In this document: positions 235 through 1,238 of the stretch, piece by piece
How the letters are laid out: each line of letters starts with the position of its first letter
Numbering within the stretch: position 1 is the stretch's first letter
IMG/VR virus record: IMGVR_UViG_2778261465_000007
DNA from: a virus
Taxonomy: Duplodnaviria; Heunggongvirae; Uroviricota; Caudoviricetes
Reading direction: 5' to 3' (one strand)
Length of the DNA stretch: 12,988 bases
The notes under the pieces: generated by a model
What the model saw: the letters and a program-made list of their open reading frames with translations, nothing else
Told to the model about the DNA's origin: nothing
Database searches by the model: none
Position numbers and translations under genes: made by a program

Positions 235-399
235 TATAATAAACTTACTTTTTTATCATTTTTCCACTTTAACAACATTTTGCTCCACTTTTCCACGACC
301 AAACAACTTGAAATCTGGTTAAAATAACACGCAACACTATTCTTCTTCCTTGAGTCCGCCCGGAACTCGAAAAACAAACCGAGTTAAAGCCATTTTTCA

Positions 400-482: not shown

Positions 483-512
483 AAAAATAATCATAATTAT
501 TTTCTGAGATGC
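483..512 (+). repeat. direct repeat copy 1: AAAAATAATC - 12 nt - TGAGATGC, ending 38 nt upstream of the pin ATG
   Basis: Exact 10-mer (483-492) and exact 8-mer (505-512) shared with copy 2 at 1141-1164. Confidence 0.5.
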
Positions 513-550
513 ATTATGATATGAACACCAATTTCGTATAGAGTCTCACT

Positions 551-1141
551 ATGTCTCGAATTTTTGCTTACTGTCGGATATCAACGCTGGATCAGACCAC
601 CGAAAATCAACGCCGGGAAATCGAAAGTGCAGGTTTTAAAATCAAACCTCAGCAAATAATCGAAGAACACATTAGCGGCTCAGCAGCAACCAGTGAGCGT
701 CCTGGTTTTAACCGGTTGCTTGCTCGCCTGAAATGTGGTGATCAATTGATTGTGACAAAACTGGATCGCCTTGGTTGTAATGCAATGGATATCAGGAAAA
801 CAGTGGAACAACTGACCGAAACAGGTATCAGAGTGCATTGCTTAGCATTGGGTGGCATTGACCTGACCAGTCCAACAGGAAAAATGATGATGCAAGTAAT
901 TTCAGCAGTCGCTGAATTTGAACGAGACCTTTTACTTGAACGCACTCATTCCGGGATAGTAAGAGCCCGCGGCGCAGGGAAACGTTTTGGTCGACCACCT
1001 GTGTTAAATGAAGAACAGAAACAGGTGGTATTCGAACGAATTAAGTCAGGTGTAAGTATAAGTGCCATTGCCCGGGAATTCAAAACCTCGCGGCAAACCA
1101 TTTTAAGAGCCAAAGCAAAACTTCAGACACCTGACATATAA
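551..1141 (+). CDS. pinR: Pin-type serine recombinase / DNA invertase (196 aa)
   Basis: N-terminal catalytic motif YCRISTLDQ (serine nucleophile), resolvase/invertase core (LDRLGCN, GRPP) and C-terminal helix-turn-helix ([18 protein letters not shown]); 196-aa length and sequence match my recollection of PinR/PinQ; convergent with tfa as in Rac. Confidence 0.9.
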
Positions 1142-1164
1142 AAAATAATCTCGGTGTGAGATGC
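1141..1164 (+). repeat. direct repeat copy 2: AAAAATAATC - 6 nt - TGAGATGC, starting at the last base of the pin stop codon; contains inverted repeat ATCTC-GGTGT-GAGAT (1148-1162)
   Basis: Exact 10-mer (1141-1150) and 8-mer (1157-1164) shared with copy 1. Confidence 0.5.
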
Positions 1165-1238
1165 TTTACGTCTTCCAAGCCCCCTTCCTTGCCGTAAATG
1201 GAAAGATACATCTAATTATAGAATTTATATGTTTTACC

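Follow-up and report, generated by a model that had tools for sequence, protein, structure and literature searches.

The recombinase gene pin and its flanks, at positions 351-1184 of the 12,988-nt stretch of DNA analysed here (the window), very probably represent the fossil of a non-autonomous Tn3-family mini-transposon, and the two copies of a bipartite repeat that bracket the gene would be relics of different parts of this element, alike only incidentally. Block 1 of the repeat (AAAAATAATC) is present in the window sequence at 483-492 and 1141-1150 and block 2 (TGAGATGC) at 505-512 and 1157-1164; the blocks are separated by 12 nt in the upstream copy (483-512) and by 6 nt in the downstream copy (1141-1164), exactly as a sequence-only reading of this DNA had described. 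Between the upstream copy and the pin ATG (551) there are 38 nt, and the downstream copy starts on the final base of the pin stop codon (TAA, 1139-1141). The inverted repeat ATCTC-N5-GAGAT that the same reading had placed in the downstream copy is indeed there, at 1148-1162.

The sequence-only reading had also considered two exact blocks on both sides of a recombinase gene unlikely to be chance. A pattern search finds the combined two-block pattern at only two places in the window, although the expectation of zero that goes with this search holds for an exact pattern picked post hoc. The real 13-kb window has about eight distinct places with a generic 10+8 bipartite direct repeat within 30 nt, and a Markov-1 shuffled window has about 3.0 such repeats, with at least one in 93% of the shuffles. 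When only the flanks are compared (351-550 against 1139-1238), a shared 10-mer arises in 2.9% of dinucleotide shuffles and a bipartite match in 14 of 20,000 (0.07%). The match is therefore improbable for pin taken alone and unremarkable given a window-wide search with free block sizes, so that the earlier judgement holds for the flanks but not for the window as a whole. These statistics leave the question of chance open, and it is the comparative evidence that decides it. According to that evidence the repeat itself is unimportant, being most likely a coincidence in decaying DNA; what the comparison supplies is a probable origin for pinR/pinQ, as a transposon resolvase rather than a tail-fibre invertase, together with exact boundaries (351-1184) for a locus that roughly one in two of the complete E. 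coli genomes searched carries, K-12 among them. Such a fossil is apparently undescribed for pinR/pinQ, and its novelty is provisional: nothing linking these genes to Tn3, TnpR or a resolvase was found in the literature searchable, most subscription journals lying outside it.

Terminal repeats, probable target duplication and res relics

The left end of the element is marked by a 38-bp relic of a Tn3-family terminal inverted repeat (IR) at 351-388 (plus strand), which is identical at 26 of 38 positions to GGGGTCAGTTTGGAATTCGGAAAATAAACCATGTTAAG, the left IR of an intact element on plasmids. The right IR relic (35 nt, 1150-1184, minus strand) has lost 3 nt near its outer GGGG end; its reverse complement, GGGG---GCTTGGAAGACGTAAAGCATCTCACACCGAG, matches the family IR GGGGTCCGCTTGGAAAACGGAAAATATCCCACGCTAAG at 27 of 35 positions, and in two members of the family (L017 and L036) this IR overlaps the 3' end of tnpA. 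Both IRs of the window are decayed, yet the ~38-bp GGGG...TAAG type is present at both ends, and the homology between the window and the plasmids can be seen directly to begin and end at the IRs, giving the fossil a span of 834 bp (351-1184). A degenerate gix-like site at 363-388 (AAACCGAG), followed up as a separate candidate, proved to be the inner portion of the left IR.

Directly outside the two relics lie identical 5-bp sequences, TTCCT, at 346-350 and 1185-1189, and the left copy is also found in the L002 and L003 lineages. Direct repeats of 5 bp, sometimes of 6 bp, are a hallmark of Tn3-family insertion (PMC13367494). Calling TTCCT a target site duplication (TSD) rests on placing the 3-nt deletion inside the right IR, where MAFFT had put the shift at its outer end; we prefer the internal deletion because it keeps both the GGGG terminus and the duplication, and the length of the C-run also varies between lineages (L002). 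The IRs, the boundaries and the TSD together suggest that a mini-element entered a lambdoid prophage in the ydfK-tfa interval, whereby TTCCT would have been duplicated. A single insertion is suggested by the TTCCT junctions common to all lineages, and the element would have decayed afterwards. Its original layout would have been IR, res (three TnpR-binding subsites with an embedded tnpR promoter), tnpR, 8 nt, IR. A search of 5,426 E. coli genomes and 50,697 phage records for an empty target site, a junction with a single TTCCT, gave no uninterrupted match, and no second insertion with a 5-bp duplication was found. Between the IR relics tnpA is absent and pin is the sole gene, so the element would have been non-autonomous and not a complete Tn3-family transposon; its full-length relatives do carry tnpA (DDE_Tnp_Tn3). 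The Tn3-family traits found in the window are thus the ~38-bp IRs, the 5-bp TSD, which depends on the gap placement, and a tnpR with a three-subsite res, present as relics.

An intact counterpart of this arrangement exists on E. coli IncF plasmids, where an 852-bp IR-res-tnpR-IR unit occupies positions 2847-3698 of L001 and 1344-2195 of L034. Its recombinase gene is an 83%-identical copy of pin with its sites intact, and the unit is bounded by 38-bp IRs, GGGGTCAGTTTGGAATTCGGAAAATAAACCATGTTAAG on the left and GGGGTCCGCTTGGAAAACGGAAAATATCCCACGCTAAG on the right, the latter inverted and starting 8 nt past the stop codon. The plasmid counterpart of the downstream repeat copy reads GAAAATAGTC TTAGCG TGGGATAT. 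No TSD surrounds the plasmid unit (TTAGC against AAGGA), so the plasmid copy gives no independent proof of mobility. In L001 the unit adjoins a RelE/CopG toxin-antitoxin pair, and in both plasmids it is annotated merely as 'recombinase family protein'.

Seven diverged loci have one upstream layout in common, a res array followed by the ATG: TGTCCGAAA-N8-TTTCGGACA; about 14 nt; TGTMCGAAA-N14-TTTCGKACA; TATRAT; YGTACA-N4-TTTCGTACA; about 10 nt; ATG. The window can be aligned to this array column by column, all on the plus strand. The relic of subsite I (9+8+9 bp) is at 438-463 and aligns to TGTCCGAAA-N8-TTTCGGACA. That of subsite II (9+14+9 bp) is at 478-509, aligns to TGTMCGAAA-N14-TTTCGKACA and holds most of the upstream repeat copy. 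The gene-proximal subsite III relic, TGAACA..TTTCGTATA, is at 522-540 and aligns to YGTACA-N4-TTTCGTACA. The subsite names are given by analogy with Tn3 and gamma-delta, and by the same analogy subsite I would be the crossover site. In Tn3-family res, resolvase binds three subsites, site III lies beside tnpR and recombination takes place in site I; promoters lie inside res and are repressed by TnpR (PMC7157771). A TATRAT block is nearly invariant in 10 family members, in most of them as TATAAT, and the window has TATGAT in these columns (515-520, plus strand). We regard this as the probable -10 hexamer of pin (tnpR), in view of its conservation and of its position between subsites II and III, like that of the res-embedded promoters of Tn3 (PMC7157771).

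Decay of the sites is directly visible when they are scored with a weight matrix built from the family half-sites, for which the family median is 14.9 bits. The left and right halves of subsite I score -3.1 and 7.6 bits, those of subsite II 2.8 and 1.3 bits, and the right half of subsite III, the best preserved, 12.1 bits. With the same matrix, no intact TnpR dimer site and no intact res was found across the 13-kb window, and resolvase binding at the res relics has presumably been lost. At the level of the repeat, block 1 of the upstream copy corresponds to the final 4 nt of the left half-site of subsite II plus 6 nt of the spacer, and block 2 to the final 5 nt of the right half-site plus TGC. 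Judged by this alignment, the upstream copy is a decayed res subsite II directly 5' of a conserved -10 hexamer. It would be what remains of an accessory TnpR-binding site and of the -35/spacer region of the pin promoter; it is probably still in that region of the promoter, and any operator activity, together with subsite III, may be weak at most. A 13-nt inverted repeat that may be chance, ATTATTTTCTGAG / CTCAGCAAATAAT at 496-508 and 648-660 (92% complementary), has one arm in the subsite II relic and the other within the coding sequence of pin.

The downstream copy (plus strand) has another composition: it opens with the final base of the stop codon, continues through an 8-nt linker (1142-1149) and ends with 15 nt from the inner end of the right IR. 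It would thus descend from the end of the gene, the linker and what was formerly a transposase-binding end, and it is probably inert beyond forming the 3' untranslated end of pin. The sequence-only reading had offered several roles for the repeat. A cassette boundary remnant describes the downstream copy, which overlaps the inner end of the right IR, and not the upstream copy, which appears to derive from the res site. A recombinase binding site describes the upstream copy, as a decayed putative res subsite II, and not the downstream one, where GGTGTGAGA scores -19.8 bits as a TnpR half-site.

Descent of the recombinase

The gene pin (551-1141, plus strand; pinR/pinQ type, 196 aa; Pfam Resolvase and HTH_7) appears by descent to be a Tn3-family tnpR resolvase gene. 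The locus, with the gene order ydfK - pinR/pinQ - tfa - stf, corresponds to one end of a lambdoid prophage of the Rac/Qin type. Among 5,426 complete E. coli genomes, 2,877 contain the pin region, most of them with at least 99% identity; a dozen phage records, mEp460, 2H10 and Kati among them, contain it as well. A scan with one genome per species returned Pin relatives at 57-78% identity. In protein alignments, Pin shares 84%, 77%, 78% and 61% amino acid identity with four proteins of the TnpR clade (84% with the recombinase of the plasmid mini-element and 77-78% with the L017 and L021 proteins) but just 38%, 35% and 35% with PinE, Gin and Cin. In addition, its HTH and three indels are those of the TnpR clade and not those of the invertases PinE, Gin and Cin. 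Scores against solved structures (Gin 105 bits, gamma-delta resolvase 83 bits) discriminate poorly.

The genomic context of the relatives is that of transposons. In Shewanella (L017), a 77%-identical gene is divergent from one for a 992-aa protein with DDE_Tnp_Tn3 (1e-148) and DUF4158, and relatives on plasmids of Vibrio anguillarum and Salmonella adjoin genes that RefSeq calls 'Tn3 family transposase'. The Erwinia oleae relative (L021) has the same res array upstream. Taken together, the protein and locus comparisons indicate that pin is by descent a transposon resolvase, not an invertase of the Hin/Gin/Cin type. At 1268-2652 of the Erwinia oleae locus there are two divergent resolvase genes (198 and 194 aa), and the array between them is extended by extra TGTACGAAA-type half-sites.

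Codon 76 of pin (776-778) specifies Cys in the motif LDRLGC, where all aligned TnpR-clade relatives and PinE, Gin and Cin have Arg (LDRLGR). Cys76 is common to prophage lineages that differ at 29 other residues, and the plasmid copy has Arg. The position corresponds to R71 of Tn3 resolvase, whose mutants have lost recombination and cleave about 1000-fold more slowly (PMC2794168). The dN/dS ratio of pin is 0.36 between prophage lineages, against 0.15-0.19 relative to the plasmid copy. Second pin copies in Shigella flexneri (L027) and in E. coli ECGI0523 (L028) are pseudogenes with frameshifts or stops, and they retain most of the flanking relic sequence. Meanwhile, Pin proteins 97-100% identical to that of the window occur in four assemblies labelled Alistipes, Draconibacterium, Caldithrix and Nocardioides (L009, L012, L013 and L033), and these loci are most likely contamination.

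Relation between the two repeat copies

In the intact plasmid copy of the element, block 1 matches at 6 of 10 positions between the upstream and downstream counterparts (GAAAGTCAGC against GAAAATAGTC) and block 2 at 3 of 8 (GGACATGC against TGGGATAT). The identity of the blocks arose in the prophage lineage, largely through G-to-A changes and two upstream transversions. The copies also vary independently: in the L003/L015 lineage the upstream copy reads AATAATAAGC...GGATATGC, a match of 8/10 and 6/8, with the downstream copy unchanged and, in L003, with a Pin protein identical to that of the window, and in L002 the downstream copy reads TGAGATTC. The junction expected of a deletion between the copies is directly seen to be absent, occurring in 0 of 5,426 E. 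coli genomes. Because the copies trace to different ancestral elements, match poorly in the ancestral state, vary independently and have left no recombination products, they appear to be non-homologous, one going back to a resolvase site and the other to an end bound by transposase, and their 10+8 identity is most likely coincidental. A few substitutions specific to the lineage, in A/T-rich DNA undergoing decay, would have produced it. The deletion that the sequence-only reading thought worth looking for is therefore missing from the genomes surveyed, and its proposal of a related, functionally paired repeat does not agree with the ancestral match of 6/10 and 3/8, the independent variation or the missing deletions. 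Its suggestion that other pin loci be searched for the motifs gave a divided answer: both recur almost throughout the ~2,600 near-identical loci in E. coli, but the upstream motif differs in L003/L015 and the downstream one in L002.

Several observations count against the fossil mini-transposon. The flank-only shuffle figure of 0.07% would make chance uncomfortable without the window-wide search; going from 6/10 and 3/8 to 10/10 and 8/8 took several substitutions, all towards identity; and the empty site is missing, the TSD depends on the gap placement and the plasmid unit has no TSD.

The directionality of the substitutions is what gives some standing to short-patch gene conversion or template switching, by which one flank would have been copied to the other with no function implied. 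The G-to-T and C-to-G changes in the upstream copy of the window's lineage exactly match the downstream copy, which is more directional than A/T drift. However, this process would need two separate patches with different spacing, and the sequence between and beyond the blocks is unrelated, with a similarity of at most 76% over 17 nt and, by eye, about 8 of 17 matches past block 2. The remaining convergence is mostly by G-to-A changes, as decay would produce. We consider such copying very improbable.

The copies might instead be a promoter element upstream and a terminator downstream, similar only by accident. The first half of this proposal, which the sequence-only reading had also raised, agrees with the position of the upstream copy directly 5' of the conserved, predicted -10 hexamer, but it is compatible with the fossil mini-transposon and already contained in it. 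The second half finds a 5-bp hairpin within the downstream copy; this is weak (-4.4 kcal/mol, z = -1.2), 23 of 200 shuffles folding as well or better, so that it is not significant against shuffles and was dropped as a candidate. No T-tract follows it, a site search of 200-1300 found no terminator, and the palindrome is lineage-specific. The promoter and terminator pair as a whole is thus very improbable.

Very improbable, too, is a functional pairing in which both copies bind PinR, Fis, IHF or some other protein, might loop or regulate pin and are kept identical by selection. The rarity of the flank-specific coincidence (14/20,000) would fit such a pair, and so would the retention of both copies by almost every one of the ~2,600 near-identical loci in E. 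coli, which at ~99% identity carries little weight. The ancestral origins of the two copies differ, however, and the L003/L015 upstream copy has diverged to 8/10 and 6/8 while Pin is identical or nearly so. In addition, L002 carries TGAGATTC downstream, the TnpR half-site matrix gives the downstream copy -19.8 bits, against the family median of 14.9, and the spacers differ in length by 6 nt, about half a helical turn. Compared by eye with the consensus sequences, the copies bear no convincing likeness to Fis or IHF sites.

Finally, that the copies serve for crossover in an inversion system of the Hin/Gin/Cin/Pin type, as sites comparable to gixR, pix and cixL, is hardly credible. The positional analogy is attractive, since P1 cixL overlaps the cin stop codon and since gin and pinE have the Mu G-segment boundary and the e14 site, respectively, no more than ~70-80 nt upstream of them. 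But a hix/gix/cix/pix half-site matrix rejects it (true sites ~29 bits, the candidates at 1139 and 487 below 0, the best score anywhere in the window 9.0 bits), Pin is only 35-38% identical to PinE/Gin/Cin with a different HTH, and the copies are direct repeats, not inverted ones.

Comparison with known systems and the neighbouring stf region

Among known systems, the Tn3 family (Tn3, gamma-delta/Tn1000, the Tn21 subgroup) corresponds most fully to the putative element of the window: 38-bp IRs of the GGGG...TAAG type with a 5-bp TSD, a small serine resolvase gene preceded by three subsites of inverted 9-bp half-sites, and subsite III and the promoter adjoining tnpR. It differs in having no transposase gene and in the decay of its IRs and res, the left half of site I scoring -3.1 bits and both halves of site II less than 3 bits. 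Subsites I and II here are 26 and 32 bp long, and those of Tn3 are 28 and 34 bp. The family half-site TGTCCGAAA is very like the half-site of gamma-delta site I.

TIMEs are likewise IR-bounded non-autonomous derivatives of the Tn3 family with 5-bp direct repeats, and some of them carry a res site (IS101, TIME244). They are 50-500 bp long and hold no gene, whereas the IR-res-tnpR-IR unit is 834-852 bp long with a complete tnpR. A limited literature search found no description of such a unit. Resolvase-only mini-transposons would be a derivative form of the Tn3 family that annotation pipelines label with nothing beyond the generic recombinase name.

With Hin, Gin, Cin and PinE, pin shares a small serine recombinase with Resolvase and HTH_7 domains beside phage tail-fibre genes. 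In Mu and e14 a recombination site is located immediately upstream of the invertase gene, and in P1 one overlaps its stop codon. The difference lies in the 35-38% protein identity, in the recognition helix region and in the three TnpR-clade indels. Inverted 26-bp crossover sites (half-site ~TTMTCNNAAACC) were not found in the window, the best score being 9.0 against ~29 bits, and no invertible segment was found beside pin. Descent from a transposon resolvase would explain why pinR/pinQ have neither a cognate site nor an invertible segment next to them.

A further, rather doubtful possibility is that pinR/pinQ are a domesticated Tn3-family resolvase, delivered by an undescribed resolvase-only IR-res-tnpR-IR mini-transposon that is still intact on IncF plasmids. 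Domestication would fit the destruction of the gene's own res, the Cys in place of the catalytic Arg (Tn3 R71) and the TnpR-type recognition helix. A 2025 study reported inversion of the e14 P segment, at Din-type repeats (TTCTCCCAAACC-type sites), by overproduced PinQ/PinR and noted that a delta-pinE strain is locked; it mentions neither Tn3 nor a cognate site (PMC12529663). A direct action of PinQ/PinR in this inversion sits oddly with a TnpR-type helix, 35-38% identity to the Din proteins and locked delta-pinE cells. If domestication were true, the reported inversion might be indirect or might come about through an unexpected change of specificity. In any case, the recognition helix and Cys76 do not fit direct Din-type inversion, which raises a question for that report.

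Beyond tfa (1239-1814), a gap of 210 nt at 1815-2026 separates this gene from the 1077-aa stf ORF, which ends at 2026. The gap holds an orphan Rac-type stf 3' end at about 1816-1945, not in frame with the long ORF. At 1938-1940, beside an imperfect palindrome (1940-1975), the homology to most genomes breaks off.
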